Positions 17,019 to 64,000 of a DNA stretch of 64,000 nt are shown in pieces (the first letter of the stretch is position 1; the number at the start of each line of letters is the position of its first letter). The stretch is from Terracidiphilus sp. (lineage in GTDB: Bacteria; Acidobacteriota; Terriglobia; Terriglobales; Acidobacteriaceae). Position numbers and translations under genes: made by a program. The stretch is taken from contig JBEKKI010000008.1 in the NCBI GenBank assembly GCA_050010795.1, positions 38,222 through 102,221 of the forward strand. Direction: 5' to 3'. A model generated the notes under the pieces. The model searched no databases and was not told the DNA's origin. It was given only the letters and a program-made list of their open reading frames with translations.

Positions 17019-19274
<2,256 letters not shown>

Positions 19275-19364: not shown

Positions 19365-19461
19365 GTGCCGGGTCCTACGCGACGTAATCCCGCCAACCCC
19401 GCCAGGTCCGGAAGGAAGCAACGGTAACGGGCTCATACGGGCGCAGTAGGTAACCCGGTAC
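19365..19461 (+). ncRNA. ffs: Signal recognition particle RNA (small bacterial 4.5S type)
   Basis: Conserved helix-8 motif CCAGGTCCGGAAGGAAGCAAC, terminal pairing gtgccggg/cccggtac, TAAAAT -10 just upstream, T-tract after. Confidence 0.93.
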
Positions 19462-19545
19462 ATTTTTTACGTTCTTCTTCACCCTTGACGCTTTTGTGTG
19501 GCGAGCCGGCTCCCCACCGGTGTGTGCGCCGCAAGGAGAAATGCA

Positions 19546-44094: not shown

Positions 44095-44104
44095 CCTTCA
44101 TCGA

Positions 44105-47254: not shown

Positions 47255-50200
47255 GCATTCTCCGTGCCCGGCTTGGCTTCAGCGCGGGCCGTCCGCGAAA
47301 GGTGGTGTCCCATCATGCGCTGGCCGAGCCGGTCAAAGAAGATGTAGATCACCGGCGTGGTGTAGAGAGTGAGTAATTGGCTCAGGATCAGCCCCCCAAC
47401 CATCGCAATGCCCAACGGCCGGCGCAGCTCCGAACCCAGCCCTGTTCCGGCCGCCAGCGGAATACCTGCCAGCAGAGCGGCCATCGTCGTCATCATGATG
47501 GGGCGGAATCGCAAAACGCTGGCCTCGTAAATCGCTTCTGTTGAATCCATGCCGCGCTGGCGCTCGGCCTCCAGGGCAAAGTCCACGATCAGAATTCCAT
47601 TTTTGTTCACGATGCCGATCAGCAGAATGATGCCGATGATGCCCACCGCGTTCAGATCCTGCCGGCAGACGATAAGCGCCAGCAGCGCGCCCACGCCCGC
47701 CGACGGCAGCGTCGAAAGAATCGTCACCGGATGAATGAAGCTTTCGTACAGAACGCCGAGCACGATGTAAACGGTAACCAGCGCGGCGAGAATCAGCAGC
47801 GCTTGGTTGGAAAGCGAATTGCGAAACGACGCCGCAGTCCCCTGAAAATCGGATTGCAGGCTGGCGGGGAAGTGGAGGTTCTTGACTACTTTCTCGATGT
47901 CGCTGATCGCCGTGCCCAGCGACGCGTTCGGCGCAAGATTAAATGAAACCGTAACCGACGGAAACTGCCCTTGATGGTTGATCGAAAGAGCCTCGGTAGT
48001 GTCGTGGACCTGCGTAAAGGCGCTCAGGGGAATGGCGTTCGTGCCAGCCGAAGAAGATGCCGTGTTGGGCGATCCGACGCCCGTCGCGCCGCGCGCCAGA
48101 ACCGACGCCGGGGCGCTCAAAGCCTGCGAAGAAGGCGTATAGCGCACTGAAGTCGTCAATGCATTCGATCCCGCCGACGCCGATGCCGACGAGGAGAACG
48201 ACGTTGCTGCGCCCGCCCCCGTCGCCCCCGACGAGGCGTTCGACTGAATGTAGAGATCGCCCAGCTTGCTCGGATCCTGCTGCCACTCCGGCGCCGCCTC
48301 CAGCACCACGTGATACTGATTCAGCTGCGTGTAAAGTGTGCTGATCTGCCGTTGGCCGAACGCATCGTAAAGCGTGTTGTCGACGGTCGTCGGCGCAATG
48401 CCCAGCCGCGACGCGGTCACGCGGTCGATCGACATCTGTATCGCTTTGGCGCCGGTCTGCTGATCCGTCGCCACGTCTTCCAGCTCGGGCAGTTTCTCGA
48501 GCTGCGCGGTAAACTTGTCCGTCCAGGAATTCAGCTCGTCCGTGTCGGGATCCTCGAGCGTGTACTGATACTGCGTCCGGCTCACGCGGTCGTCCACCGT
48601 GATGTCCTGCACCGGCTGCATGTAAAGGCGCATCCCGTGCACCTGGCTCAGGTTCTTCTGCAGCCTGCGGATCACATCCGACGCGCTGATGTGCCGCTCC
48701 TCGATGGGCTTCAGGTTGATCGAAATGCGTCCGCTGTTCAGCGTGGTGTTGATTCCGTCGGCGCCGATGAACGACGACAGGCTCTCCACCGCCGGATCCT
48801 GAAGAATGGTCTGCGCCAGCTCCCGCTGCTTCTCGCTCATGGCGTTGAACGAGATCGACTGTGATGCCTGCGAAATTCCCTGGATTACTCCCGTATCCTG
48901 CACCGGGAAGAATCCCTTGGGAATTTCGATGTAGAGGACGATCGTGAGCACCAGCGTGGCCACGGCCACCAGCAGCGTAATCGGTTGGTAGCGCAGCACA
49001 ACCTTCAGCGTGCGCCCGTAGAACGCAATCAGTCCGTTCACCGCGCGCTCCGACGCCTGGTAGATGCGGCCCTCCTGCTCCTTGGGTTTGTGGCGCAGAA
49101 TGCGCGAGCACATCATGGGAGTCAGGGTGAGCGAGACCACCGCTGAAATTACGATCGTGACGGCCAGCGTGATCGCGAATTCGCGGAACAGCCGCCCCAC
49201 AACATCGCCCATGAAGAGCAGCGGAATCAGCACCGCCACCAGCGAAACGGTCAGCGACATGATGGTGAAGCCGATCTGGCCCGCGCCGGTCAGCGCGGCC
49301 TCCAGCGGCGGCATGCCCGACTCGAGGAACCGGCTGATGTTCTCGATCATCACGATGGCGTCGTCCACCACAAAGCCCGTGGAAATCGTCAGCGCCATCA
49401 GCGACAGATTGTCCAGCGAATAGCCCAGCAGGTACATCACGGCAAAGGTGCCGATCAGCGAAAGCGGAACCGCCACGCTGGGTATGATCGTGGCCCGCAG
49501 GCTGCGCAGGAACAGAAAAATCACCATCACAACCAGCACGATCGTCAGCATCAGCTCGAACTCCACGTCGTGCACCGACGACTGAATGCTGGTGGTCATG
49601 TCGGTCAGAGTCGTCACCTTGATTGACGCCGGCAGATTGGCTTCAAGTTGCGGCAGCACCTTCTGAATGGCGTTCACTACCGTGATCGTGTTCGCGCCCG
49701 GTTGCCGTTGGATGTTCAGAATGACAGCCGGCGTCATATCCATCCATGCCGCCTGCTTGCTGTTCTCAACTCCGCTCAGCACGTTGGCCACGTTCTTCAC
49801 GAACACCGGCGCGCCGTTGCTGTAGGCGATCACCACGTTCTTGTAGTCGTCGGGACTGGTGATCTGGTCGTTGGCGTCAATCTGGTAGTCCTGGCGCGGT
49901 CCATCGAAGTTGCCCTTCGCCGAGTTCACGCTGGCCTGGGTCAGGGCCGTGCGCACATCCTCCATGTTCAAACCGTAGGCCGACAACGCCACTGGGTTCA
50001 CCTGGATGCGCACTGCGGGCTTCTGCCCGCCGCTGATGCTCACCATGCCCACGCCGTTCAGCTGCGAGAGCCGCGGTGCCAGCCGCGTGTCCACCATGTC
50101 CTCCACTTGTGACAGCGGCAGAGAGTCTGACGTGATGGCCAGCGTCAGAACGGGTGCGTCGGCGGGATTGGTCTTTGTGTACACCGGCGGCACCGGAATG

Positions 50201-50565
50201 TCCGAAGGAAGGAACGTCTGCCCGCCGTTGATCGACGACTGCACCTCTTCTTCGGCAACGTCGAGGCCGAGCGAGAGGCTGAATTGAAGAACGATGACCG
50301 AGACGCCGCCCGCGCTGGTCGACGTCATCTGGCTCAGCCCCTGCATCTCGCCAAACTGGCGCTCCAGCGGCGCAGTGATCGTCGTCGCCACCACGTCGGG
50401 GCTCGCCCCAGGATAAAAAGTCACCACCTGGATCGTCGGATAGTCCACCTGCGGCAGGGCCGACACAGGCAGTTGAAAGAATGCAACCAGTCCCGCAAGC
50501 AGAATTGCGGCCATCAGAAGCGACGTTGCGACCGGCCGCAGAATGAATGGTCGCGATGGACTCAT
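47251..50565 (-). CDS. mdtB: RND transporter permease, MdtB-like
   Basis: MSPSRPFILRPVATSLLM, LPQVDYPTIQV, GFVVDDAIVMIENI, RFRPIMMTT. Confidence 0.93.
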   Translation of the reverse strand: MSPSRPFILRPVATSLLMAAILLAGLVAFFQLPVSALPQVDYPTIQVVTFYPGASPDVVATTITAPLERQFGEMQGLSQMTSTSAGGVSVIVLQFSLSLGLDVAEEEVQSSINGGQTFLPSDIPVPPVYTKTNPADAPVLTLAITSDSLPLSQVEDMVDTRLAPRLSQLNGVGMVSISGGQKPAVRIQVNPVALSAYGLNMEDVRTALTQASVNSAKGNFDGPRQDYQIDANDQITSPDDYKNVVIAYSNGAPVFVKNVANVLSGVENSKQAAWMDMTPAVILNIQRQPGANTITVVNAIQKVLPQLEANLPASIKVTTLTDMTTSIQSSVHDVEFELMLTIVLVVMVIFLFLRSLRATIIPSVAVPLSLIGTFAVMYLLGYSLDNLSLMALTISTGFVVDDAIVMIENISRFLESGMPPLEAALTGAGQIGFTIMSLTVSLVAVLIPLLFMGDVVGRLFREFAITLAVTIVISAVVSLTLTPMMCSRILRHKPKEQEGRIYQASERAVNGLIAFYGRTLKVVLRYQPITLLVAVATLVLTIVLYIEIPKGFFPVQDTGVIQGISQASQSISFNAMSEKQRELAQTILQDPAVESLSSFIGADGINTTLNSGRISINLKPIEERHISASDVIRRLQKNLSQVHGMRLYMQPVQDITVDDRVSRTQYQYTLEDPDTDELNSWTDKFTAQLEKLPELEDVATDQQTGAKAIQMSIDRVTASRLGIAPTTVDNTLYDAFGQRQISTLYTQLNQYHVVLEAAPEWQQDPSKLGDLYIQSNASSGATGAGAATSFSSSASASAGSNALTTSVRYTPSSQALSAPASVLARGATGVGSPNTASSSAGTNAIPLSAFTQVHDTTEALSINHQGQFPSVTVSFNLAPNASLGTAISDIEKVVKNLHFPASLQSDFQGTAASFRNSLSNQALLILAALVTVYIVLGVLYESFIHPVTILSTLPSAGVGALLALIVCRQDLNAVGIIGIILLIGIVNKNGILIVDFALEAERQRGMDSTEAIYEASVLRFRPIMMTTMAALLAGIPLAAGTGLGSELRRPLGIAMVGGLILSQLLTLYTTPVIYIFFDRLGQRMMGHHLSRTARAEAKPGTENA

Positions 50566-51803
50566 GGAGTGGCCCCGCTCGCTGAGATCGGAATCGTCAC
50601 CTTCGAGATCACGATGTCTGATCCGTCCATCAGCTTCTGGAAGCTGCTGTTTGCCACCACGTCTCCGGGATTGATCCCCGTTACCGCAGTGTTGCCTCCG
50701 TCGGAGATTCCCGACTTTACGGTCTTCATCGCCGCCTTGTTGTTCTGGATCAGGTAAACGAAGTCAGCTGCGCCGTTGTGCTGGATCGCTGAAGCAGGAA
50801 CGAGCGTCTGGTTATCCAGCGTCTTCACCAGCAGGCGCGTATTCACAAATTCATTGGGGAAGAGCATTCCATTCGGGTTGCTGAATTCCGCGCGCAGCTT
50901 CACCGTCCCCGTCACCGTGTCGATCTGGTTATCCACGGTGATTAACCGCCCCTTTGCCAGAAGCGTCTGCTGCGTGCGGTCATATGCCTCCACCGTCAGC
51001 GGCTTGCCGCCGCGCATCTGTTCCAGCACTTCCGGCAGGTTGTCTTCCGCCAGCGTGAAGATCACGGTGATCGGCTGGATCTGCGCAACTGTCAGCAGCG
51101 GCGTGCTCGAGTTGGCCGTCACCAGGTTGCCCGGATCCACCAGCCGCAATCCCACGCGCCCGTCGATCGGAGAAGCGATGTGGCAGAACGCCACTTGAAC
51201 TTCGTCATACTGCACGTTTCCCTGGTCGTTCTTCACGGTGCCTTGATTCTGCAGCACCACCTTCTCCTGGTCCTCCAGCGTTTGCCGTGGGATCGCGTTC
51301 TTCGCCCACGCATCCTGGTAGCGTTTCAGGTCCATCTGCGCTTCGGCCAGCAGATTCTGGTCGCGATCCAGCGCGCCTTGCGCCTGCGCCAGTTGCGCCG
51401 CGTAAGGCCGCGAGTCGATATCGATGAGCGGATCGCCTTTATGAACGCTCTGCCCCTCGCGATAGTGGACAGCCGTGATCACGCCCGTCACCTGCGCGGT
51501 GATGGTGTCGAGGTTCGTCGGTGTCACTGTTCCGATGGCGTCAAGATAAACGCCGATGGAGCCCGCCTTGGCCGTGGCCACCGTAACGGGTACGGGCCCT
51601 CCCATTGCGGCCCCGCCTCGGCGAACGCCTCCCGCGCCCGCGGTGGCAGATGCGCTCGCGCTATGCTGCCTCCACACCCACACGAACAGCAGCGCAAAAA
51701 GCAGGAGAATAATCACCCAGATCCAGCGGTGGCGGCGTTTTTTTGTGGAATCTTCGGGCGCTTGCCCGGCGGCAGGATGCGATGCAAACAAAGGTTGATC
51801 CAT
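50562..51803 (-). CDS. mdtA: RND membrane fusion protein, MdtA-like
   Basis: TM anchor, SPIDGRVGLRLVDPGN, DNQIDTVTGTVKLRA. Confidence 0.92.
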   Translation of the reverse strand: MDQPLFASHPAAGQAPEDSTKKRRHRWIWVIILLLFALLFVWVWRQHSASASATAGAGGVRRGGAAMGGPVPVTVATAKAGSIGVYLDAIGTVTPTNLDTITAQVTGVITAVHYREGQSVHKGDPLIDIDSRPYAAQLAQAQGALDRDQNLLAEAQMDLKRYQDAWAKNAIPRQTLEDQEKVVLQNQGTVKNDQGNVQYDEVQVAFCHIASPIDGRVGLRLVDPGNLVTANSSTPLLTVAQIQPITVIFTLAEDNLPEVLEQMRGGKPLTVEAYDRTQQTLLAKGRLITVDNQIDTVTGTVKLRAEFSNPNGMLFPNEFVNTRLLVKTLDNQTLVPASAIQHNGAADFVYLIQNNKAAMKTVKSGISDGGNTAVTGINPGDVVANSSFQKLMDGSDIVISKVTIPISASGATP

Positions 51804-52101: not shown

Positions 52102-52200
52102 TCATTTTCGCAAAATCGACCCGGCTGCCATCGCATGGTAAACCCCGCCATCGACCACAGCGATCCCGTTGATCAGCACATGCTCGACGCCCGCCGGATT
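52102..52200 (-). pseudogene. C-terminal 32-codon remnant of an amidohydrolase (D-aminoacylase-like)
   Basis: Not in the ORF track. Translates NPAGVEHVLINGIAVVDGGVYHAMAAGSILRK*, matching the P-GI-HVLVNG-VV-DG---G--LR tail of that family. No start codon and no catalytic barrel. Confidence 0.7.
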
Positions 52201-53170
52201 ACGCAAAATCCAGGGAAGTCCTTCGCCAGGGGGAGACGATGTGGGTACCTCCATTGCCGATTACCGCACTCGCTACGTTCTCCACGGAGGTGATAATGCA
52301 CTCCTCGCCTCGGTTTTCGAGGAAGTCGATTGCCGCCTGGATTTTCGGCCCCATCGACCCCGGTGGGAATTGGCCTGCCGCCAGATACTCGCGCGCCTGG
52401 TCCATGGTGATCGTGTCGAGCCATTTCTGGCTGGGCCGGCCATAGTCGAGCGCTACGCGATCAACTGATGTAACAATGACGAGCTTGTGAGCGCGCACGT
52501 GCGTCGCCAGCATGCTTGATGCCAGGTCCTTGTCGACAACGGCTTCCACACCCACTAAACGATCGTCTTCCCAGGCCACCGGAATCCCCCCGCCTCCGCA
52601 GGCGATCACGACGACGCCGGCGTCGAGCAGCGATGAGATCGCTTCGGCCTCTAGAATTTGCATCGGGAGTGGCGAAGGCACGACGCGACGGTAGCGTCCC
52701 GGAGAGACTTCGCGCATGATCCAGTCTGGCCTGTCGCTGCGGATGCCGGCCAGCTCGCTCGCGTCATAAAAAGACCCGATCGGCTTGCTCGGATGCTGGA
52801 AGTCCGGGTCGTCGCGATCCACGAGCACCTGGGTGATCAGCGTAGCCACTTCGCGCTTGATTCCCTCGCGACGGAACAACTCGCAAACCAGCCGCTGGAT
52901 CATGTAGCCCATGCCGCCCTGGCAATCGGCGTCGCAGGTGTCGAGCGGCAAGCGCGGAACGCGCCGCTCGCCCTCCTCGACGCGAATCAGGATGTTGCCG
53001 ATCTGCGGTCCGCTGCCGTGGGTGATGGCGATTCGTGAACCGGCGTGGAACAGGGGCTTGAGATGCTCGAGCGTCTCCGCAGTGTGGGCAAACTGCAAGG
53101 GAATGGTGCCGGGTTCGCCGGGCCTGGTAATGGCGTTACCGCCCAGGGCGATCACAAGAGTTTCGGTCAT
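52199..53170 (-). CDS. arcC: Carbamate kinase
   Basis: IALGGNAI, THGSGPQIG, QGGMGY, RRVVPSP, CGGGGIPV, EAVVDKDLAS, FPPGSMGPKI. Confidence 0.96.
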   Translation of the reverse strand: MTETLVIALGGNAITRPGEPGTIPLQFAHTAETLEHLKPLFHAGSRIAITHGSGPQIGNILIRVEEGERRVPRLPLDTCDADCQGGMGYMIQRLVCELFRREGIKREVATLITQVLVDRDDPDFQHPSKPIGSFYDASELAGIRSDRPDWIMREVSPGRYRRVVPSPLPMQILEAEAISSLLDAGVVVIACGGGGIPVAWEDDRLVGVEAVVDKDLASSMLATHVRAHKLVIVTSVDRVALDYGRPSQKWLDTITMDQAREYLAAGQFPPGSMGPKIQAAIDFLENRGEECIITSVENVASAVIGNGGTHIVSPWRRTSLDFA

Positions 53171-53174
53171 GGTC

Positions 53175-54203
53175 TTAAGATCCTGTCATCTCGTAAACAA
53201 CTTCTTGGTCCGACATCGTCAGTGCCATGATCGCCTTGGCGGTATGCAGGCGGTTTTCCGCTTCCTGGTACACCACAGATTGCGGGCCATCGATGACATC
53301 GTCCGTCACCTCGTTGCCCCGATCGGCGGGCAGCGGATGCATGTACAGAGCATTCTCCGCAGCCAATTTCATGCGCTCGTTGTTGCAAATCCAGTGCCGG
53401 TATCCCTCGGCGATCCGCAGGGACTCCTTGGGGTTCGTTCCCATGGTGTCGAGACAGCCCCAGCTCTTGGGAATCACGATGTCAGCGCCGCGAAACGCGT
53501 CGTCCATGTTGTCCACGATCTCGAACTTGGTTCCGGCGCGCCGCGCGTTCTCTCGCGCCGCCTCCACCGTCTCCGGCATCAGCGCGTACTCGGGTGGATG
53601 CGCCAGCACCACGTCCAGTCCAAAGCGCGGCATCAACATGATCAGTCCTTGCGGCACGCTGAGCGGCTTGGCGTAGCTCGGCGCATACGCCCACGATACC
53701 GCCAGCTTGCGTCCGCTCAGGTTCCGTCCGAGTTTCTCGCGGATTGTCATCAGGTCGGCCAGCGTCTGGCAGGGATGGTCGATGTCGCCCTGCATATTGA
53801 TCACCGGCACATCCGCCCAGCGCGCAACTTCGCGCATGTACGCGTTGCCCTCGCCCGGAATCAGGTCGTGACGGATGGCGATCGCGTGCCCGTAGCTGGA
53901 GAGAATGATTCCTGTGTCCTTCGCGCTTTCGCCATGCGAGACCTGCATGACATCGGTGGTCAAAAAATGGGCGTGGCCGCCAAGCTGCGTGATTCCCGCC
54001 TCAAACGAGTTGCGCGTGCGCGTGGATTTGTCGAAGAACATCAGAAAGATGGTCTGATCGGGCAAATAACGATGCGGAACGCGCCCTTTGAACTTGCGCT
54101 TCAAATCGGCGGATACGTCGAGCAGGATTTCGATCTCTGCTTCGCTGTATTCTTCCGTAGTGATGTAGTCCTTGCCCTTAAAGAGCGCCTTTCTCGTTTC
54201 CAA
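53175..54203 (-). CDS. ygeW: YgeW-like knotted carbamoyltransferase
   Basis: KSTRTR, HPCQTLAD, MHPLPADRG, and the YgeW-type loop SWAYAPSYAKPLSVPQG. Confidence 0.82.
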   Translation of the reverse strand: METRKALFKGKDYITTEEYSEAEIEILLDVSADLKRKFKGRVPHRYLPDQTIFLMFFDKSTRTRNSFEAGITQLGGHAHFLTTDVMQVSHGESAKDTGIILSSYGHAIAIRHDLIPGEGNAYMREVARWADVPVINMQGDIDHPCQTLADLMTIREKLGRNLSGRKLAVSWAYAPSYAKPLSVPQGLIMLMPRFGLDVVLAHPPEYALMPETVEAARENARRAGTKFEIVDNMDDAFRGADIVIPKSWGCLDTMGTNPKESLRIAEGYRHWICNNERMKLAAENALYMHPLPADRGNEVTDDVIDGPQSVVYQEAENRLHTAKAIMALTMSDQEVVYEMTGS

Positions 54204-54236: not shown

Positions 54237-55463
54237 TCAGCCATTCTCGCCTTCGAGCGTCGTGACGTACGCCAGGGGGAAGGCAGCATAGAACTGCGCC
54301 GCTTCCACCAGGTGGCGGATCGGGACGCGTTCGATGACACTATGCGCGACGTCTTCTTCACCGGGACCGAAGCCGATGGTCGGCACGCCCATCATTCCCA
54401 TCGAGCCGACGCCGTTGGTGCTGAAGGTCCACTTGTCCACAACTGGATCGGCGTTGTGGAGCGTTCGATACGCCGCCACGGCCGAGCGCACGAGCAAATG
54501 GTCTTCTTCGAGCACCCACGTTGGATAGTACTTCTGCATCGGATACGTGAGTCCGGTATAGCTGGGCGTCTCGTACTGCAACACCTCGATCTCCGCGCCT
54601 TGCGCCGCCGGCAGGGCTTTCACCTCGGCGACCGCGCTCTCGAGCGTCTCCCCGGCGGTCAGCCGGCGGTCAAGATGGATGGAGCATGCGCCCGGCACCG
54701 CGCACAGGGAAGGAGACATCGAGCGAATCTCGGTGACGGCGATTGTTCCCTTGCCGAGAAACGCATCGTCGCGCAAACGCGTGTTCAACTCCTCGATCTG
54801 CGCGATCATCGGGACTATCTTGTAAATCGGATTGTCGCCGCGCTCCGGCGCGCTGGCATGACACGAACGTCCGCGTATGTGAACCTCGATCTCCATGCGT
54901 CCGCGGTGTCCGCGGTACACGCGCAGATTGGTTGGCTCCGTGAGCACTACGCAGTCCGGCCGGATACCGTCCTCCTTGAGAATGTAGACCCACGCCAGGC
55001 CGTCGCAGTCTTCTTCCTGCACCGATCCCACGATCCACAAAGTGTAGTCGCCTTCCAGTTCCAAATCCTTGATCATCTTGCCCGCGTAAACCATGCTGGC
55101 CATGCCGGCGCGTTGATCGCTGGCGCCGCGTCCGTAGATGAAACCGTCCTCCACTTTGCCCTTGTACGGGTCCCAGGCCCATTCCTTCGGATCGCCAACG
55201 CCGACGGTGTCGGTGTGCGCGTCCATCATGATCACGTGTTTGCCTGAGCCGATGCGTCCCAGCACGTTGCCTATGGCATCAATGCGGATTTCGTCGAAGC
55301 CCACGCATTCCATCTCCTGCTTGATGCGCTGAACCACGGGACCTTCGTGGGAACTTTCGCCGGGAATGGCGACTAGGTCGCGCAGAAAGCGGACCATGTC
55401 CGCTTCCAGCGCGTTTGCGGCGGCGAGTAAACGGGCGGAGTCAATCGTAGTTTTATCAGGCAT
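54237..55463 (-). CDS. ygeY: YgeY-family M20 hydrolase
   Basis: MDAHTDTVG, GRGASDQRAG, VQEEDCDG, RGHRGRMEI, KWTFSTNG, GFGPGEE. Confidence 0.92.
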   Translation of the reverse strand: MPDKTTIDSARLLAAANALEADMVRFLRDLVAIPGESSHEGPVVQRIKQEMECVGFDEIRIDAIGNVLGRIGSGKHVIMMDAHTDTVGVGDPKEWAWDPYKGKVEDGFIYGRGASDQRAGMASMVYAGKMIKDLELEGDYTLWIVGSVQEEDCDGLAWVYILKEDGIRPDCVVLTEPTNLRVYRGHRGRMEIEVHIRGRSCHASAPERGDNPIYKIVPMIAQIEELNTRLRDDAFLGKGTIAVTEIRSMSPSLCAVPGACSIHLDRRLTAGETLESAVAEVKALPAAQGAEIEVLQYETPSYTGLTYPMQKYYPTWVLEEDHLLVRSAVAAYRTLHNADPVVDKWTFSTNGVGSMGMMGVPTIGFGPGEEDVAHSVIERVPIRHLVEAAQFYAAFPLAYVTTLEGENG

Positions 55464-55492: not shown

Positions 55493-58078
55493 TCAGCACG
55501 GTTGTAATGCTCCTTTCTTGTTGCGACTGCGGCTGTAAGGCGTGTCGGCGAGCGGCAGGCTCGTGCGCAGCTTTCCGTCCCGCTGCCAATACGCGCACGC
55601 AATGGCCGGCGCCGTCGGAATGCTCACAATTTCGCCGATGCCCTTGGCGCCGTACGCCAACTCGGCCCGGTTCTTCTCGATAATCCGGCACTCGATCTCC
55701 GGCGTCTCGGTCGAGCGCAGAAGGCCGATCGTTCCGAACTTGACTGCAGGTGCGCCATTCTTTACAGCGAACTCTTCGGTCAGCGCATAGCCCATCCCCA
55801 TCACCACGCCGCCTTCGATCTGCCCCTCCACGCCATTCGGATTGATGGCCCGCCCTACGTCGTGCGCTGCCACCACCTTCATCACTTTGCCTGCCTCGTC
55901 AAGCAGCACCACCTGCGTCGCGTATCCGTACGATACGTGGCTCATGCGGTGCGGCTTGTCGCTCGTCATCGGGTCGGTCACGCAGTCGTACTCGCCGTGG
56001 AACTCTTGGCCCTCCAATTCCGCCAGCGCGTGACGGTTCAACTGCCGCCTAAGCTCGAGCGCCGCCCTTCGCGCCGCCTCGCCCGTAATCGTTGTCTGCC
56101 GCGAAGCAGTGCTGGTGCCGCTGTCCGGCGTCACGCTGGTGTCAGGCGCATGCACCGTGAGCATTGACTTGTCGACGCCCGCCGTTTCCGAGACAATCTG
56201 CAGCACCACCGTCGCGATCCCTTGACCCATGCACGCCGCGCTGGTCGAGATCGTCACCCGTCCGCCCTCCACTTTCAGCTTCACGCGGCCTACGTCCTTC
56301 ACCCCCACGCCCTTGCCTGTGTTCTTGAACGCGCACGCAATCCCCGCGTCGGGATGCGCATCGATCACGTCCTTCACGGCGAGCAGTGTCTCCTTCAGCG
56401 CCGTCCCCTCATCGGCGATCTGCCCGTTTGAAAGCACGCCGCCCGCCTCGATCGCGTTGCGGTAACGAATCTCCCACGGCGAAATTCCTGCCGCGTGCGC
56501 CAGCAGATTCAGGTTGCTCTCCATCGCGAAACACGTCTGTGTCACGCCGAACCCGCGCATCGCGCCCGACGGAATGTTGTTGGTGTAGATCGCCCGTCCC
56601 TCGATGTCGACATTCTCGATCCGGTACGGTCCAGCCGCGTGCGTGCACGCCCGCTGCAGCACCGGCCCGCCCAGCGACGCATACGCTCCCGTATCTGCCA
56701 CAATCCGCACCCGCGCCGCGGTCAGCTTGCCGTTCTCATCGCACGCCGTCGTGCATTCAATCTCCATCGGGTGCCGCTTGGGATGCACGCGCAGGCTCTC
56801 ATCGCGGCTCAGGGTCAGCTTCACGGGCCGTCCGCTCTTCCAGGCCAGCAGCGCCGCGTGATGCTGAACCGACATGTCTTCCTTCCCGCCAAACCCTCCG
56901 CCAACGAACTTGCTAACGACCCTCACCTTCTCGCCTTCCACTCCCAGCGTCCGCACAATCTCGCGATGATCGTCGTACACGCTTTGTCCCGCGGTATACA
57001 CCGTCAGCGATCCGGGCGCTCCCGGCACGGCCAGCGCACTCTCCGGCTCCAGAAACGCATGCTCCTGCCGCGGCGTGGAATAGCGCTGCGTCACCACATG
57101 CCTGGCCGCAGCAATCGCCCGCTCCGCATCGCCCCGCTTCAACACCGTCGTCGCCAGCACATTTCCTTCGAGATGCAGCTGCGGCGCTCCCTCAGCTAAT
57201 GCCGCCTGCGGTGAAAGCAGCGGCTCGCGCTCTTCGTATTCCACGCGGACAAGCTCGATCGCCTTCCTCGCCGCCTCCTTCGTTGTTGCCGCCACCAGGG
57301 CGAGCGCATCGCCCACGTATCGCGTCTCTTCTCCTTCGGCAATCATCACCGGCCAGTCGTAGACCACGTGCCCCAGCATTCGCTCGCCCGGCACGTCGCG
57401 CGCCGTCAGCACAATTTCAACGCCGGGCAGCGCCCGCGCCGCCGCCGCATCGATCCGCTTCACCAGCGCCCGCGGAAACCTCGCCCGCAGCACGGCGCCA
57501 TGCAACATGCCCTCCACGTGCATGTCATCGACAAATTCGCCCGTCCCCAGCAGCTTCTCTTTTGCTTCCGCACGCACCGTGCGCTCGCCCACGCGCGCTC
57601 CCGCCGCCTCCACGTCATGCACCCTGCCGTTGGCCAGAGCCCCCGCAGCCAGTTGAATCGCCCGCTCCACCTTCGCGTATCCCGTGCAGCGGCACAGGTT
57701 GTAGCGGATCGCCGACTTCACCTCCGCCGCTGTCGGCGCGGGATTCGCGTCCAGCAAAGCCTTCGCGCTCATCACCATGCCCGGCATGCAGAATCCGCAC
57801 TGCACCGCGCCCACTTCGCCGAAGGCCCACGCATACACCTCGCGCTCCCGCGGCGAAAGCCCCTCCACCGTCATCACCGATTTCCCGTGTACCCTGGCCA
57901 CAGTGAGCGTGCACGCGCGTGCCGCCTTGCCGTTCACGATCACGGAGCACGACCCGCACACTCCGTCGCCGCATCCGTTTTTGACTGAAGTCAGGCGCGC
58001 GTCCTCGCGCAGGTATTCGATCAGACTCTTGTCCGTCTCTGCCGCGGCCTCCCGCTGGTTTAGCGTGAAGCGGAACAT
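55493..58078 (-). CDS. Single-chain molybdenum hydroxylase (2Fe-2S plus Mo domains), selenium-dependent xanthine dehydrogenase type
   Basis: CGDGVCGSC, VQCGFC, CRCTGY, QEHAFLEPE, GGGFGGKED, AMRGFG, GAKGIGE. No FAD domain. Confidence 0.9.
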   Translation of the reverse strand: MFRFTLNQREAAAETDKSLIEYLREDARLTSVKNGCGDGVCGSCSVIVNGKAARACTLTVARVHGKSVMTVEGLSPREREVYAWAFGEVGAVQCGFCMPGMVMSAKALLDANPAPTAAEVKSAIRYNLCRCTGYAKVERAIQLAAGALANGRVHDVEAAGARVGERTVRAEAKEKLLGTGEFVDDMHVEGMLHGAVLRARFPRALVKRIDAAAARALPGVEIVLTARDVPGERMLGHVVYDWPVMIAEGEETRYVGDALALVAATTKEAARKAIELVRVEYEEREPLLSPQAALAEGAPQLHLEGNVLATTVLKRGDAERAIAAARHVVTQRYSTPRQEHAFLEPESALAVPGAPGSLTVYTAGQSVYDDHREIVRTLGVEGEKVRVVSKFVGGGFGGKEDMSVQHHAALLAWKSGRPVKLTLSRDESLRVHPKRHPMEIECTTACDENGKLTAARVRIVADTGAYASLGGPVLQRACTHAAGPYRIENVDIEGRAIYTNNIPSGAMRGFGVTQTCFAMESNLNLLAHAAGISPWEIRYRNAIEAGGVLSNGQIADEGTALKETLLAVKDVIDAHPDAGIACAFKNTGKGVGVKDVGRVKLKVEGGRVTISTSAACMGQGIATVVLQIVSETAGVDKSMLTVHAPDTSVTPDSGTSTASRQTTITGEAARRAALELRRQLNRHALAELEGQEFHGEYDCVTDPMTSDKPHRMSHVSYGYATQVVLLDEAGKVMKVVAAHDVGRAINPNGVEGQIEGGVVMGMGYALTEEFAVKNGAPAVKFGTIGLLRSTETPEIECRIIEKNRAELAYGAKGIGEIVSIPTAPAIACAYWQRDGKLRTSLPLADTPYSRSRNKKGALQPC

Positions 58079-59466
58079 TTTGCATGCTCCTCTTGAACGG
58101 CCGGCCGGTGTGCGCAAATCTTCTCGTTATACTCGCGCACCTTGGCGTATTGCGCGTCCCAAAAGCTCTGGCTGCGCATCGAGTCGAGAAACTCCTTCGT
58201 GTAACCGAACTTCAGCCAATCGTTTTCCTTTTGCTTGAAGAGCCGCTCTTTCGTCTCCGCCTTGCGAAAGTCAAAGACCTCGTCGCTTGACGCGTCGAGA
58301 AAGATGTCGCTCGCCCAACGGTCCAGCACCGTTGGTGTCAGCTCCAGGTAGCGGCCCTCCAGGTCGCGCAGCACGGAGTGGTAACGGTCAAACCCATCCG
58401 TTGCCACCGTCACCACGTTGTCCCCTGGGCCCAGCCGCAGATATTTCGCCAGCTTGATCGCGCCCAGCACGTTGCACACGCCCGACGGCCCGAACAGTTC
58501 CCGCAGTCCCAGCGCAAACTCCCGTTCCACGCCCATCCGCACCATGGTCTCCAGTCCGTCGTGGAAGATCTTCACGCCCTGCACCGTCTCTTCGTCCCTG
58601 ATCAGAATCACGAAGTCGGTATTGAGCACGTTGTGAATCAGCGTGCACATCTTGTCGCCGATGCCCTCGATGCGATGCTGCCCGCGGCCTCCGGTCGCCA
58701 GCGTGGAGCACTCATACGGCTCCAGTGCGGCCACCTTCGCCTCTGGAAACATCGCCTTGATCTGATCGCCCGCTGCAATCGTCCCCGCCGAGCCCGGCGC
58801 CGAGACAAAACCCGCGATCCGCCCGTTGCCCACGCCCTTTACCGCATCAGCTGCGCTCCCGCCCGTGACGTGCCGGTGAAACCGGTAGTTCGGGAACAGC
58901 TCGAATTGCGCCAGCGCCTTGTTTTTGGGGTTCTTCATCAGCTCGCGCGTTTTTTCGAGCGTCAGGATCACGTCCGACTCCGTGCCCGGCGTCAGCTCCA
59001 GTTCTCCTCCGTACTTCCTGATGCGCTCGTAACGCTCCTTGCTCATGTTGTCCGGCATGATCACGATCGCGCGGAAGCCCAGCAGCTTCGAGATGTACGC
59101 GGTCCCAATGCCGAAATTGCCCGTCGACGGCCCCAGTATCGTGTGCTCGCCCGGCACGATCTCTCCATCCACCAGCGCTTCCATCAGCGTCGAGTACGCC
59201 GCGCCTACCTTGTGCGAACCGGAAGGAAATCGGTTCCCGAGCATCACCACCACGTTCGCGGCCACGCCCGTCAGCGCCGAGGGCAGCACCACCTTCCGCA
59301 TCTCGTTGGCCGCATCGCGCCAGTTGATGTTGAACAGATTGATCGGATCGAGCTCGTCCTTGTCGAGCGCCTCAAGCGCCCTTGCGCGCACGCTCTTATC
59401 GATCAATCCCGGGTTGAGCATCTCGTCGTAACTGGGACCCATCGGAACTTTCGCCATCGTTCTCAC
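58060..59466 (-). CDS. Fold-type-II PLP enzyme (cysteine-synthase-like) of unknown function
   Basis: PSGSHKVG (PLP Lys), STGNFG, PGSAGT phosphate loop, HRIEGIG. C-terminal extension of roughly 90 aa. Confidence 0.82.
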   Translation of the reverse strand: MRTMAKVPMGPSYDEMLNPGLIDKSVRARALEALDKDELDPINLFNINWRDAANEMRKVVLPSALTGVAANVVVMLGNRFPSGSHKVGAAYSTLMEALVDGEIVPGEHTILGPSTGNFGIGTAYISKLLGFRAIVIMPDNMSKERYERIRKYGGELELTPGTESDVILTLEKTRELMKNPKNKALAQFELFPNYRFHRHVTGGSAADAVKGVGNGRIAGFVSAPGSAGTIAAGDQIKAMFPEAKVAALEPYECSTLATGGRGQHRIEGIGDKMCTLIHNVLNTDFVILIRDEETVQGVKIFHDGLETMVRMGVEREFALGLRELFGPSGVCNVLGAIKLAKYLRLGPGDNVVTVATDGFDRYHSVLRDLEGRYLELTPTVLDRWASDIFLDASSDEVFDFRKAETKERLFKQKENDWLKFGYTKEFLDSMRSQSFWDAQYAKVREYNEKICAHRPAVQEEHAKCSASR

Positions 59467-59547
59467 TTTCCCTTCCTTCTATCCGACCTAAATCCTTAAA
59501 TCGCAGTGGGTGCCACAGGTCTCGATTTTGAGACCTGGGTTATAAAG

Positions 59548-60804
59548 TCAACTCGCCGCTGCCGCAGCCACCGCTTCCCGAACCTCATCCATCTCCGGCC
59601 GCACCGCAATCGGGCGGCCCACGGCGCGCATCGCGCTTTGCACGTCCTTCAATCCATTCCCCGTCATCACCAGAACCGCGCTCTCGCTGTGGCCTATCAC
59701 GCCCGACGCGACGGCCCGCCGCACGCCCGCCGCACAAGCCACACCCGCGGGTTCGCCAAACACGCCCGTTCTTCGTGCCACGAGCGTCATCGCTTCAAGA
59801 ATCTCTGCGTCCGATACCGCGATGAACGCGCCGCCCGACTCGTTGACGGCGCGCATGCCTTTGGCAAAGTTCCGCGGATGCCCCACGGCGATCGAATCGG
59901 CAAGCGTGTTCCCCTCACATGGCGTGAGCGCGCTTCGATCGCGCCACGCCGTAACAAACGGCTGGCAGCCCTCGGCCTGCACTCCCAGAACACGCGGCAG
60001 GCGCTCCAGAATCCCCAATCGGCACATTTCCCTCAGCCCCGACCACACGCCGCCGATCGTGCATCCATCGCCCACCGATACCACCACCCAATCGGGAAAT
60101 CTGCCGTCCCCGATCCGCGAAAACTGCTCCGCCATCTCCAGCGAAACTGTCTTCTTGCCCTCGATCAGGTATGGGTTCACGGCGCAGTTGCGGTTGTACC
60201 AGCCGAACTCCGCGCTGGCATTCATGCACAGTTCCCATGCCTCGTCGTATGTGCCCTGCACCTGGAAAACTCGCGCTCCGTACACCAGCAGTTGCGCCAC
60301 CTTGGCCTCCGGCGCGCGTGCCGGAACAAAAATCGTCGCCGCAATCCCCGCTGCCGCCGCCATGCCTGCCAACGACGACGCTGCGTTGCCTGTCGACGCG
60401 CACGTCACCTGCGCCGCCTTCCGCTCCAGCGCCTTCACCACGCCCAGCGCGCTCGCGCGATCCTTGAACGACGCCGTCGGGTTCCGTCCCTCATCCTTCA
60501 CCCAGCACCGCGCCACTCCCAATTCGCTCGCCAGCCGCGGCGCATCGTAGAGCGGTGTCCAACCCACCTGCAGGTGCGGAATCAACTCCGGCGACGCCAC
60601 GGGCAGCAGCGGCAGATAGCGCCACATCGAAAGCTCGCTATTTCCCTTGAGCGTGTCCGCATTCAGCTCCCGCCGCACCGCTTCGTAGTCGTACTCCACA
60701 TCCAGAATGCCCTCGTGATATCCGCAGGCAGGGCAGTAGTATTCCGCCTCCAGTGTCGAGTACGTTCGCCCGCAATGAATGCATCTGAGTCCCGTAACGT
60801 GCAT
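59548..60804 (-). CDS. Threonine-synthase-like PLP enzyme with N-terminal Zn ribbon
   Basis: CIHC/CPAC, VGWTPL, NPTASFKDR, ASTGNAASS, SVGDG, EPAG, TGNGLKD. Confidence 0.85.
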   Translation of the reverse strand: MHVTGLRCIHCGRTYSTLEAEYYCPACGYHEGILDVEYDYEAVRRELNADTLKGNSELSMWRYLPLLPVASPELIPHLQVGWTPLYDAPRLASELGVARCWVKDEGRNPTASFKDRASALGVVKALERKAAQVTCASTGNAASSLAGMAAAAGIAATIFVPARAPEAKVAQLLVYGARVFQVQGTYDEAWELCMNASAEFGWYNRNCAVNPYLIEGKKTVSLEMAEQFSRIGDGRFPDWVVVSVGDGCTIGGVWSGLREMCRLGILERLPRVLGVQAEGCQPFVTAWRDRSALTPCEGNTLADSIAVGHPRNFAKGMRAVNESGGAFIAVSDAEILEAMTLVARRTGVFGEPAGVACAAGVRRAVASGVIGHSESAVLVMTGNGLKDVQSAMRAVGRPIAVRPEMDEVREAVAAAAAS

Positions 60805-60850: not shown

Positions 60851-61945
60851 TTACCGAGGCATCGTGATCGCCCGCAGCTTGCAGCGCGTAATGCACAGCC
60901 CGCACTTCGCGCACTTCTCCTCGTCGATTTCCACGATCCTCGCGTTCTTGTCCATGCGAATCGCGCCATACCCGCAGCTCTTCTCGCAGATCCCGCAAAG
61001 AGCGCAGTGCTCCATATTCACTTTCGGCGCGGTCTCCATGTGTGGTGCGCCGCATTGCCGCATCATGCGCACCGTGAGCCCGCTGATCTCGTCCACTGAC
61101 TTGTAATCATGCTCGTCGAGAAACTCATTCAGCTCGCGAGCGATCCTCCCGTACACCGTCGGCCCGCGCAGAATCGCCTCCGTGCACACCTCGACGGCCA
61201 GCGCGCCTGCCATCAGCATCTCCGCCGCGTCGCGCCCGTTGCTGATGCCGCCCACGCCGACAATCGGAATCTTCACCGCCCGCGCCGCGTCGTACACGCA
61301 GCGCAGTGCCAGCGGCTTGATCGCAGTGCCCGACAGCCACCCGAACCCGTCCTTGCTCCCCATCAGCGGCAGCCCGGTTTCGATGTCGATGCTCAGGCAC
61401 GGCCCGAATGAGTTGATCATCACCAGCGCATCCGCGCCCGCATCCTCCAGCGCCAGCGCCAGCTCCTGGATGTTCGGGTGCGGGCTCAGCTTCATGAACA
61501 CCGGCACATCCACCGCTTCCTTGGCCGCGCGCAGCGCATCGATGATCGGCCCGATATTCGTTCCCACATAGTGCGTCGAAAGCTCCAGCGCATCGGCAAA
61601 CGGCTTCACCATGGGCGCCAGCTCCCGGATCTGCCTGGCCGTGTACCCCAGGCCCACAATCACCGGCAGGCCCGTCGCCCGCGCCAGCTTGTACTCGGAT
61701 TCGATCCACTGTTCTTTGGGTAGCTCTGACCACAGTTCGGCGTTCAAGAATCCGCCGCGAATCTCCGCCATGCATGGCTGCGGCACCTCGGCCGGGGCGG
61801 CGGAAATGGTTTTGGTCACGAGCCCGCCGGCGCCGCCGCTCGCAGCCGCCTCGAGCGCTGCGCCGTCTTTCGAAGGCGGTCCTGCCGCAGGCAGAATCGG
61901 ATTCCTGAATTCCAGACCGCAGATATTGACGCGTAGATTTGCCAT
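60851..61945 (-). CDS. PreA/DHODH-like FMN TIM-barrel protein with C-terminal 2x[4Fe-4S]
   Basis: FRNPILPAAGP, VTKTI, MKLSP, LSGTAIKPLALR, GVGGIS, CALCGICEKSC and CAKCGLCITRC. Confidence 0.88.
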   Translation of the reverse strand: MANLRVNICGLEFRNPILPAAGPPSKDGAALEAAASGGAGGLVTKTISAAPAEVPQPCMAEIRGGFLNAELWSELPKEQWIESEYKLARATGLPVIVGLGYTARQIRELAPMVKPFADALELSTHYVGTNIGPIIDALRAAKEAVDVPVFMKLSPHPNIQELALALEDAGADALVMINSFGPCLSIDIETGLPLMGSKDGFGWLSGTAIKPLALRCVYDAARAVKIPIVGVGGISNGRDAAEMLMAGALAVEVCTEAILRGPTVYGRIARELNEFLDEHDYKSVDEISGLTVRMMRQCGAPHMETAPKVNMEHCALCGICEKSCGYGAIRMDKNARIVEIDEEKCAKCGLCITRCKLRAITMPR

Positions 61946-62154: not shown

Positions 62155-63498
62155 ATGGCGGAGTCTGCCAATTTGCTGGTCGGCAACGGCCGCGTCATCA
62201 CCCACGACGACGGCCAGCCCTTCCTCGAGAACGGCTGCATTGCCATCCAGGACGGCCTCATCGCCGCCGTCGGCCCCACCGCCGAAATCGTGCCCGCCAA
62301 TCCCGACGCGCGTTTTCTCGATGCGCAGGGCCGCATCATCATGCCCGGCCTTATCAATGCTCATACGCATCTCTACAGCGCCTTCGCCCGCGGCATGGCG
62401 CTCAAGGATGATGCCCCCGGTAATTTCATGCAGATTCTCGAGCGCCTCTGGTGGCGGCTCGACAAAGCTCTCACCCTCGACGACGTCTACTGGAGCGCCA
62501 TGGCCGGCATGGTCGAGTGCATCCGCAACGGCGTCACCACCGTCTTCGACCACCACTCCAGCCCCCACGCCGTTCGCGTCAGCCTTTTCCGCATCGCCGA
62601 GGCCGCGCGGCAAACCGGCCTCCGCGCCTGTCTCTGCTATGAAGTCTCCGACCGCGACGGCGCAGAGATTGCCACGCAGGGCATCGAGGAGAATCGCGCA
62701 TTCCTCGAGACCTGCATCCGCCGGCCTGAAAGCCTCATCCGCGGCCTCTTCGGCCTGCACGCCTCGTTCACTCTGGGCGACGCGACTCTTGCCCAATGCC
62801 GCGAGGCTGCCGCCGATCTCGGCGCCGGATTCCACGTGCACACCGCGGAAGCTCTTTCAGACGTCGACCATTGCCTCCGCGAGCACAACATAGGAGTAGT
62901 CGAGCGCTGGCGCCAGCGCGGCATCCTCGGCCCGCACACGCTCGCTGCGCATTGTGTCCACGTCAGTGAGCGCGAAATCGATCTCCTGCGCGAGTCAAAA
63001 ACCGCGGTCGTGCACAACCCGCAATCCAACATGGCCAACGCGGTTGGCTGCGCGCCGGTCCTCGAAATGATGCGCCGCGGCACCCGCGTCGGCCTCGGCA
63101 CTGACGGCTACACCGCGGACATGTTCGAGTCTATGAAGGCTGCCTCGCTTCTCCAGAAGCATCACTCCGGCGATCCGCGCGCCGCATGGTCCGAGCCGCC
63201 GCTCATGCTCTTCCGCGAAAACTCGGGCCTAGCGTCGGAACATTTCGGCCAGCCCGTCGGCACGCTCACGCCCGGCGCTGCCGCCGACATCATCCTCGTC
63301 GACTACGACCCGCCCACGCCGATCGACGCCGCCAACCTTTCCGGCCACATCTTTTTTGGCCTGACGGGCCGCGCCGTCTCCACCACCATCGTCGGCGGCC
63401 GCATCCTGATGCACAACCGCAAACTCCTCACCATCGACGAAAGCGAAGTGATGGCCCACGCCCGCGCCGCCGCCGCCGAAGTCTGGAAGCGGTTCTAG
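62155..63498 (+). CDS. ssnA: Amidohydrolase SsnA
   Basis: MPGLINAHTHLYSAFARG, LWWRLDKAL, DHHSS, LCYEVSDRDG, FGLHASFTL, GFHVHTAE, HNPQSNMANAVG, GTDG. Confidence 0.93.
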   Translation: MAESANLLVGNGRVITHDDGQPFLENGCIAIQDGLIAAVGPTAEIVPANPDARFLDAQGRIIMPGLINAHTHLYSAFARGMALKDDAPGNFMQILERLWWRLDKALTLDDVYWSAMAGMVECIRNGVTTVFDHHSSPHAVRVSLFRIAEAARQTGLRACLCYEVSDRDGAEIATQGIEENRAFLETCIRRPESLIRGLFGLHASFTLGDATLAQCREAAADLGAGFHVHTAEALSDVDHCLREHNIGVVERWRQRGILGPHTLAAHCVHVSEREIDLLRESKTAVVHNPQSNMANAVGCAPVLEMMRRGTRVGLGTDGYTADMFESMKAASLLQKHHSGDPRAAWSEPPLMLFRENSGLASEHFGQPVGTLTPGAAADIILVDYDPPTPIDAANLSGHIFFGLTGRAVSTTIVGGRILMHNRKLLTIDESEVMAHARAAAAEVWKRF

Positions 63499-63533: not shown

Positions 63534-64000
63534 TGTCATCCTGAGCGAGTCGCATGGGTGACGAGCCGAAGGACCTGCATTTGCTTTTCGTTCTTGTTCT
63601 TGCGGCTAGGGTGGGAGTCTGTCCACTGACCCCCTGACCCCTGATCTCTGATCTCTGATCTCTGATCTCTGTACACCTGTCATCCCGAGCGCAGCGGTTT
63701 GGGGCCCCGGATTCGCAACGCGAATATGGGGCAAGCGGAGCCGAAGGACCTGCTTTTGCTTTTCGCTCTTGTTCTTGCGGCTAGGGTGGGAATCTGTCCC
63801 CTGACCCCTGACCTCTGAACTCTGTACACCTGTCATCCCGAGCGTAGCGGTTTGGGGCCCCGGACTCGCAACGCGAATATGGGGCAAGCGGAGCCGAGGG
63901 ACCTGCATTTGCTTTTCGTTCTTGTTCTTGCGGCTAGGGTGGGAATCTGTCTACTGACCCCTGACCCCTGATATCTGATCTCTGTACACCTGTCATCCCG
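63534..64000. repeat. Tandem array of composite 144-160 bp units, continuing past the window end
   Basis: Units start with tgtcatcc at 63534, 63678, 63831 and 63991. Shared blocks: gagccgaaggacctgc, ttgcttttcg(t/c)tcttgttcttgcggctagggtggga, ctgacccctg and (ctgatct)n. Confidence 0.92.

Follow-up and report, generated by a model that had tools for sequence, protein, structure and literature searches.

A predicted UacX orthologue and candidate YgfK-independent purine reductase in a uric-acid gene cluster of peat Acidobacteriaceae

What reaction does a flavoprotein of the dihydroorotate dehydrogenase (DHODH) fold catalyze when the usual catalytic loop of that fold appears to be gone? The question is raised by a gene on the minus strand (60851..61945) of a 64,000-nucleotide stretch, hereafter the window, of contig JBEKKI010000008.1 from Terracidiphilus sp. 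(assembly GCA_050010795.1). An initial annotation, made from the sequence alone, had described its product (the target) as a PreA-like flavoprotein and a possible minimal analogue of YgfK, either split or dependent on ferredoxin. We consider it probable, at roughly 75%, that the target is a reductase of the UacX type, which would catalyze the second reaction of reductive uric-acid breakdown independently of YgfK. We base this on the uric-acid gene cluster around the gene, on 60% identity to a protein of Clostridioides difficile, on linkage to genes for SsnA and xanthine dehydrogenase (XDH) in two phyla, and on a set of signature residues in common with YgfK.

The reductive uric-acid pathway was worked out in gut bacteria by two groups in 2025. 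In it, XdhD/XdhAC dehydroxylates urate to 2,8-dioxopurine, YgfK (DOPOR) reduces 2,8-dioxopurine with NAD(P)H and SsnA opens the ring, after which HyuA, YgeW or UacY, YgeY and YgeX lead to pyruvate. Both the role of YgfK and the pathway were shown biochemically in Escherichia coli and Clostridium sporogenes. C. difficile lacks YgfK and has instead a PydA/PreA homologue with a PF01180 domain, a site for flavin mononucleotide (FMN) but no flavin adenine dinucleotide (FAD) domain (Li et al. 2025, Life Metab, PMC12507026). Li et al. named this protein UacX and proposed, from gene context only, that it replaces YgfK in a ferredoxin-dependent manner; they purified CdUacX (Suppl. Fig. S4h) and described an assay protocol in their Methods (PMC12507026). 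Among the relevant papers that we found, no other names UacX, and Acidobacteria are mentioned in neither of the two 2025 pathway papers.

Results

An FMN barrel with two iron-sulfur clusters and a rebuilt loop

The open reading frame (ORF) of the target is intact and encodes 364 amino acids, beginning with MANLRV as in its homologues. The only domains that Pfam recognizes are DHO_dh (residues 4-276, E 3e-37) and, behind it, a 4Fe-4S dicluster (Fer4); neither Pyr_redox_2, Fer4_20 nor any other FAD or NAD(P)H domain was detected. The protein is thus predicted to be an FMN barrel of the DHODH/PreA fold with a C-terminal domain for two [4Fe-4S] clusters. The two CxxCxxCxxxC motifs, C314-C324 (60974-61006, minus strand) and C345-C355 (60881-60913, minus strand), are evident from the translation and from the alignment of homologues, and all eight cysteines are invariant among 44 homologues of 57-87% identity; both ferredoxin motifs are intact, as initially stated. 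The target lies below the cut-off of every curated NCBIfam family: its best models are those of class-1B PyrD (TIGR01037 / NF005574; 194-198 bits, with cut-offs of 269-270), and the PreA model (NF006183) gives 179 bits, with a cut-off of 335. Its best sequence match in the PDB is the PyrD subunit of Lactococcus lactis DHODB (1e-27), and homologues are annotated by JGI as 'dihydroorotate dehydrogenase subfamily 1'. The AlphaFold2 model has a mean predicted local distance difference test score (pLDDT) of 88 and a predicted TM-score (pTM) of 0.84, and its best Foldseek match is to the FMN and C-terminal ferredoxin domains of pig dihydropyrimidine dehydrogenase (DPD; TMq 0.82-0.84). A search of RNA-seq runs returned no run containing the target gene.

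The most unusual part of the protein is the loop after strand beta4, L120-E-L-S-T-H-Y126 (61568..61588, minus strand), which emerges from translation, alignments and conservation as a family signature. In HMMER alignments to solved structures, LELSTHY pairs, with gaps, with the IELNISCPN stretch of L. lactis DHODB and the ALELNLS(C)PH stretch of pig DPD; it also aligns with IECNFSCPQ of E. coli PreA, which confirms that it stands in the place of ELN-x-SCP. The loop is 7-11 residues shorter than the ELN-x-SCP loops and contains no cysteine. The catalytic acid of DPD is Cys671, and C671A and C671S entries are among the DPD structure matches. In a profile alignment to PreA-like proteins (E 4e-91), S123 falls on the invariant substrate-binding Asn, and S-C-P is deleted together with eight more residues. 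The residue opposite the cysteine differs with the alignment: it is Y126 when no gaps are allowed and S123 in the HMMER alignment to DPD, and hhalign deletes S-C-P altogether. In the AlphaFold2 model, strand beta4 comprises residues 119-122 and is followed by a nine-residue loop, with a helix from residue 132. The initial annotation had spoken of a missing catalytic Cys/Ser loop; this holds for the cysteine and for the N-x-S-C-P motif, but not for the hydroxyl side chains, because a serine (S123) and a threonine (T124) are present.

Conservation argues that this loop is functional. All 44 homologues have S123, H125 and Y126, at least 90% of them keep T124, and the ELSTHY motif is still found in representatives down to about 40% identity. 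We also searched a set of genomes, one for each species, for the peptides LN[AT]ELWS and A[LI]ELSTHY, derived from an alignment of four sequences, and found a relative encoded in at least 588 of these species genomes; all locus counts given here refer to the best 80 loci of these 588 genomes (49 acidobacterial and 31 from Bacillota, C. difficile not being included) and to a distance of 10 kb from the gene. The motif reads ELSTHY in 78 of the 80 loci and ELSCHY in the other two; one of the 80 was missed by a broader search pattern. Since the motif is conserved both in the homologues and across these loci, chance degeneration is not a satisfactory explanation, and the alignments indicate that the canonical catalytic loop is truly absent outright rather than merely diverged.

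Other short loops occur after beta4 in this architecture. Many proteins of about 360 residues with a DHO_dh barrel and two [4Fe-4S] clusters (representatives P0142-P0264) carry ELVSY, EVPGY, EVVSY or other sequences here, lacking both N-x-S-C-P and S-T-H-Y; judged by their sequences, they appear to be uncharacterized radiations of the PreA-like architecture.

Orthology with UacX of C. difficile

The C. difficile protein was reached by a search for homologues that started from an orthologue of Peptostreptococcaceae. It is represented by a cluster of 369-residue sequences (P0407) whose named members come nearly all from C. difficile, the rest from Clostridioides spp., and which are annotated as '4Fe-4S binding protein' or as 'dihydroorotate dehydrogenase, catalytic subunit'. 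The gene is flanked by a xanthine/uracil permease gene on one side and, on the other, by a HyuA-like gene and then a gene for an XDH without FAD domain. From organism, length and gene neighbors, we infer that P0407 is UacX (UniProt Q181U4). Aligned with it over 362 residues, the target shows 60% identity (E 7e-169) and carries the very same loop, ELSTHYVGT; by sequence it is an orthologue of UacX.

Residues in common with YgfK

If the target and YgfK act on the same substrate, some trace of this might be expected in their barrels. Direct BLASTP of the target against YgfK yielded only weak, collinear high-scoring segment pairs (E 0.03-11), and a profile-profile comparison was needed to relate the two: hhalign matches the N-terminal 450 residues of YgfK, a much-expanded DHODH-type barrel, to the UacX family at 95.6-98.2%. 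Together with Pfam matches on YgfK homologues, this bears out the earlier description of YgfK as a DHODH-like barrel combined with a GltD-like module. We then compared, column by column, 57 UacX-family, 102-108 YgfK and 10 PreA-like sequences. The FMN framework (K45, N68, K152, G232-G233 and G247) is kept in all three groups, and N178, found in 55 of the 57 UacX-family proteins, aligns with the invariant N317 of YgfK and with N201 (9/10) of the PreA-like proteins.

Several further positions unite UacX and YgfK to the exclusion of the PreA-like proteins. S123-T124 is common to both (L-S-T-M-H in YgfK), with Asn at the first position in 10/10 PreA-like sequences, and so is the histidine of the loop. 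G100-Y101 at the end of beta3 (61640..61648, minus strand) never varies in UacX or YgfK but does so in PreA-like proteins, and the invariant W72, within N-x-E-(L)-W-S, is likewise confined to the first two groups. Finally, P57-C58-M59 (61769..61777, minus strand) has its Pro-Cys in common with K-P-C-I of YgfK, as opposed to Pro-Arg in PreA, DHODB and DPD; the cysteine is found in 49/57 UacX-family and 102/102 YgfK sequences, and arginine in 10/10 PreA-like ones. In the AlphaFold2 model, S-T, G-Y, the tryptophan and the loop histidine sit at the C-terminal ends of barrel strands or immediately beyond them, that is, on the substrate face of a TIM barrel, and Pro-Cys lies off the strand ends, in a low-confidence loop before a hairpin strand. 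These common residues provide support for a common substrate that is independent of gene context.

The two families differ in one respect that bears on mechanism. Across 108 YgfK homologues the loop after beta4 is an invariant T-L-S-T-M-H-G-C-P-P, with C231 kept in 107/108; UacX lacks this loop cysteine. We considered C58 as a relocated catalytic cysteine and downgraded it: YgfK keeps it without exception, yet in the wider UacX family no more than 49/57 sequences have it.

A reductive uric-acid gene cluster in the window

The genes around the target are those of purine catabolism. Immediately upstream and divergently transcribed lies ssnA (62155..63498, plus strand; NF005540, 622 bits, cut-off 444), for the amidohydrolase that opens the reduced purine ring. 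On the minus strand there follow, from the target onward, a ThrC-like pyridoxal phosphate (PLP) enzyme of fold type II (59548..60804; NF006050, 304 bits, cut-off 303), whose likely start, MHVTG, was inferred from homologues of 418 residues; a divergent PLP enzyme of the CysK family with 468 residues (58060..59466; TIGR01139, 138 bits, cut-off 351), whose best PDB relatives are cysteine synthases (~1e-30); an XDH homologue of the selenium type without FAD domain, presumed to be the urate 6-dehydroxylase (55493..58078; TIGR03311, 1341 bits); an M20 hydrolase of the YgeY family (54237..55463; TIGR03526, 581 bits; 58% identity to E. coli YgeY); a YgeW-like carbamoyltransferase (53175..54203; 40% identity to E. 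coli YgeW, below NCBIfam cut-offs); and a carbamate kinase, for the role of YqeA (52199..53170; NF009007, 330 bits, cut-off 266). E. coli YgeY, YgeW, YqeA and SsnA match genes of the window at 36-58% identity (tblastn). Because SsnA, the selenium-type XDH, YgeY, the YgeW-like enzyme and carbamate kinase adjoin the target, the locus is, by its gene content, a reductive uric-acid (2,8-dioxopurine) gene cluster.

Searches of the 64-kb window by tblastn with E. coli PreT, YgfK, YgfM, XdhB and HyuA gave no match at E<=1e-3, and YgeX is also absent from the cluster. As the initial annotation had stated, the window thus encodes no PreT/GltD-like partner, Pfam scans of its ORFs being negative as well, and the neighboring XDH is FAD-less, with Pfam matches to 2Fe-2S and Mo (molybdopterin) domains only.

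The cluster is directly bordered by an efflux operon of the resistance-nodulation-division (RND) type (42562-51803, minus strand), with an OEP outer-membrane efflux protein, two AcrB-type pumps and a membrane-fusion protein; the other large ORFs of the window encode, besides this efflux system, a sigma factor, RecQ, SMC, KatG, NadE and other unrelated products. A two-domain heme peroxidase (17031-19274, plus strand), probably the catalase-peroxidase KatG, gives a hint of a host that does not live strictly anaerobically, even though enzymes of the cluster are sensitive to oxygen. Directly downstream of ssnA, from 63563 to the window end at 64000, there are three tandem copies of a unit of ~153 nt, 92-96% identical; a listed ORF at 63606-63908 (minus strand) is probably an artifact of this repeat. 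The sole Rfam match in the window is a bacterial small signal recognition particle RNA (19366-19463, plus strand; RF00169, 71 bits), and no riboswitch was found near the purine cluster.

Distribution and variants of the cluster

The acidobacterial loci belong to Acidobacteriaceae (Terracidiphilus, Granulicella and metagenome-assembled genomes), with 73-87% identity to the target, and the Bacillota loci to Clostridium, Peptostreptococcaceae, Pelosinus, Propionispira, Desulfotomaculum and Peptococcaceae, with 60-70%. The window's own sequence is present in peat and wetland metagenomes. The gene is linked to ssnA in 49/49 acidobacterial and 22/31 Bacillota loci and to an XDH gene in 45/49 and 26/31, respectively. 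YgfK and YgfM are found in none of the loci of either group (0/49 and 0/31 each), and PreT in 0/49 and 1/31. In all the loci whose gene order was inspected (L003, L005, L008, L012, L036), ssnA is adjacent and divergent. The two phyla differ further down the pathway: YgeX, a diaminopropionate ammonia-lyase, is encoded in 0/49 acidobacterial and 21/31 Bacillota loci, and HyuA in 3/49 and 21/31. With no PreT-like gene nearby in any of the 49 acidobacterial loci, the notion of a split enzyme is unsupported. The other half of the proposal, a minimal and probably ferredoxin-dependent analogue of YgfK, gains support from the cluster, the orthology with UacX, the linkage to ssnA and XDH and the YgfK signature residues.

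Between uacX and the XDH gene, the acidobacterial clusters carry the ThrC-like and divergent 468-residue CysK-like PLP enzymes (58060-60804, minus strand, in the window). The pair also occurs in four loci labeled Desulfocucumis (ThrC-like only), Peptococcaceae or Thermacetogenium, at 52-70% identity; besides the window, the loci on which we rely for the pair are L008, L012, L036, L053, L063, L066 and L069. Comparison of these sequences suggests an undescribed downstream branch, together with a transfer of the cluster from the Desulfocucumis/Peptococcaceae/Thermacetogenium lineage.

Within Acidobacteriaceae the end of the cluster takes two forms. The first consists of the YgeW-like carbamoyltransferase and carbamate kinase (52199-54203, minus strand, in the window), the second of a UacY-like Amidohydro_3 enzyme and an M20 peptidase 33-37% identical to the YgeY of the window (compared at L005/L006 17597-19195, L012, L018, L025 and L030-L032). 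The occurrence of both within one family mirrors the difference between E. coli and C. difficile. One acidobacterial-type cluster, with 75% identity to the target, comes from a contig binned as 'Candidatus Saccharimonadales' (L049, DATLJC010000078.1), a label that is probably a binning error.

Discussion

Proposed function and mechanism

We propose that the FAD-less XDH would dehydroxylate urate to 2,8-dioxopurine, that the target would reduce, and thereby dearomatize, 2,8-dioxopurine at its FMN, and that SsnA would then hydrolyze the ring open. A low-potential one-electron donor, for example ferredoxin, rather than NAD(P)H would supply the electrons, and the two C-terminal [4Fe-4S] clusters would relay them to FMN, probably across a homodimer in the manner of DPD. 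FMN would deliver a hydride to C6 of 2,8-dioxopurine, and S123-T124, in place of the pyrimidine-binding Asn, may give room for the fused imidazolone ring. In the stead of the cysteine, the proton donor could be Y126, H125 or Y101; C58 would be less consistent with this role. Alternatively, the hydride might be delivered to C6 of a C6=N1 imine tautomer, with no carbon acid required, C5 being protonated later, possibly in SsnA. The product of YgfK has been reported as seen only when SsnA is present, and the imine-tautomer alternative would fit this observation. Substrate, electron donor and proton-transfer chemistry are inferred throughout, with PydAc as an analogous precedent, in the same fold, for the use of ferredoxin or viologen.

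Several points weigh against this interpretation. No activity has been reported for any UacX, and neither the text nor the supplement of PMC12507026 gives an activity result. The equation of P0407 with UacX is not a direct accession match. The loop block is modeled with a pLDDT of 76, and the placement of the residues that replace Cys and Asn or face the substrate relies on sequence and profile alignments only. Pfam scans of the other large ORFs of the window revealed no flavin/NAD(P)H, PyrK-like or ferredoxin partner, that is, no gene for the electron donor. Lastly, since HyuA and YgeX are missing from the cluster of the window, its downstream route differs from the characterized one, so that a related intermediate could be the true substrate.

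Alternative explanations

A bolder version of our proposal is tentative. In it, the DHODH/DPD fold would contain a branch with a mechanism of its own, made up of UacX and the YgfK barrel, in which the pyrimidine-type catalytic loop would have been rebuilt (as S-T-H-Y or -M-H-) for a fused-ring purine; UacX would reduce the ring without a carbon-protonating cysteine, either by reduction of the C6=N1 imine with later tautomerization in SsnA or through a Tyr/His proton relay as in Old Yellow Enzymes; and in peat soil the acidobacterial cluster would provide anaerobic urate catabolism with one more downstream branch, as yet undescribed. As a whole, this version appears less likely than not.

The absence of HyuA and YgeX and the insertion of two unrelated PLP enzymes could also mean that the pathway is a variant one in which the target reduces some other heterocycle, such as 5-ureidouracil or a different isomer of oxopurine. 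We consider this unlikely: the protein and its loop are nearly the same in the acidobacterial clusters and in the Bacillota clusters that do contain HyuA and YgeX, and a near-constant protein across both cluster types speaks for one common substrate upstream of the variable part.

Instead of reducing a ring, the target might be a redox module that docks on the FAD-less XDH and feeds it electrons in the stead of YgfM or XdhB. The XDH indeed has no FAD subunit, neither YgfM nor XdhB was found in the window, and the two genes are co-oriented and conserved together. However, we know of no NAD(P)H site in the DHODH barrel; the invariant residues of the substrate face are in common with YgfK, a substrate reductase; E. 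coli has both YgfM and YgfK, so that the roles are separate there; and without the target the cluster would have no dearomatizing step. This role is thus quite improbable. The milder suggestion of the initial annotation, that the target and XDH exchange electrons, is unlikely for the pathway as published, in which each of the two steps takes up electrons; an external donor that serves both appears more plausible.

Could the target be a ferredoxin-dependent dihydropyrimidine dehydrogenase of the PydAc/PreA type, acting on uracil or thymine, with SsnA and YgeY as enzymes of the dihydropyrimidinase and ureidopropionase kind? DPD is the closest solved fold, PreA-like proteins are matched very strongly at the profile level (the E 4e-91 given above), and PydAc provides an example of ferredoxin-driven uracil reduction in this fold (PMC7332683). 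Yet the target has lost N-x-S-C-P, with the cysteine equivalent to C671 of DPD, and has Ser in the position of the substrate-binding Asn; the PreA model stays far below its cut-off; the target has one ferredoxin domain, against two in PydAc; and the surroundings are those of a purine cluster, the SsnA of the linked loci being of the uricolytic type. We regard this possibility as very unlikely. The weakest candidate, the catalytic subunit of a class-1B-like DHODH of pyrimidine biosynthesis, is suggested by the best PDB match and the JGI naming and is hardly credible, given the sub-threshold PyrD scores, the missing catalytic cysteine, the change of Asn to Ser after beta4, the absence of a PyrK-like FAD/NAD(P)H partner from the Pfam scans of the window ORFs, the fused ferredoxin domain and the catabolic purine cluster.

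Implications

The idea of a YgfK analogue is already published for C. difficile UacX (PMC12507026), and the locus opens no new kind of system. What appears to be new are the residues common to UacX and YgfK, the loss of the cysteine that YgfK keeps and the replacement of YgeX, and mostly HyuA, by two other PLP enzymes in the acidobacterial clusters; the ELSTHY signature and the single ferredoxin domain, as compared with the two of PydAc, are also undescribed in PMC12507026. The same enzyme is found nearly unchanged in peat Acidobacteriaceae, a phylum and a habitat outside both 2025 papers. ELSTHY in the absence of N-x-S-C-P provides a simple signature to separate UacX from PreA and PyrD, as which it is annotated at present, and the residues in common with the assayed YgfK are targets for mutation in the study of purine-ring reduction without the classical cysteine.

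Comparison with known systems

The closest relative of the target is UacX of C. difficile, with which it agrees in size class (364 and 369 residues), in its DHO_dh barrel with a single C-terminal 2x[4Fe-4S] domain and in having SsnA and a FAD-less XDH as cluster partners. It differs in its host, a peat acidobacterium as opposed to a gut Firmicute, in the adjacent and divergent ssnA, and in a cluster that lacks HyuA and has two other PLP enzymes instead of YgeX. YgfK (DOPOR) of E. coli has the same pathway position next to SsnA and a homologous FMN barrel; at 1032 residues, its barrel is enlarged by long insertions, and it carries a GltD-like FAD/NAD(P)H module as well as additional Fe-S sites; the target has nothing of the NAD(P)H module. 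PydAc of Clostridium chromiireducens, a ferredoxin-dependent dihydropyrimidine dehydrogenase that reduces uracil (PMC7332683), likewise has FMN in a DHODH fold, lacks a FAD/NAD(P)H module and is driven by reduced ferredoxin or viologen (PMC7332683); its two ferredoxin domains flank the barrel (16 Cys, four clusters), whereas the target has one, at the C terminus (8 Cys, two clusters), and lacks the pyrimidine-type loop. PreA of E. coli and domains IV-V of pig DPD have the two-domain architecture and the fold of the target, from which they differ by an identity of only 28-29%, by the N-x-S-C-P motif deleted in the target, by Arg where the target has Cys after a conserved Pro and by the PreT partner, which the target lacks. 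The barrel of class-1B PyrD (L. lactis, PDB 1EP1), finally, superposes well with the target model (TMt 0.84, root-mean-square deviation 2.6-2.9 A), but PyrD has no fused ferredoxin domain, uses PyrK and carries an N-I-S-C-P-N loop with the catalytic cysteine.

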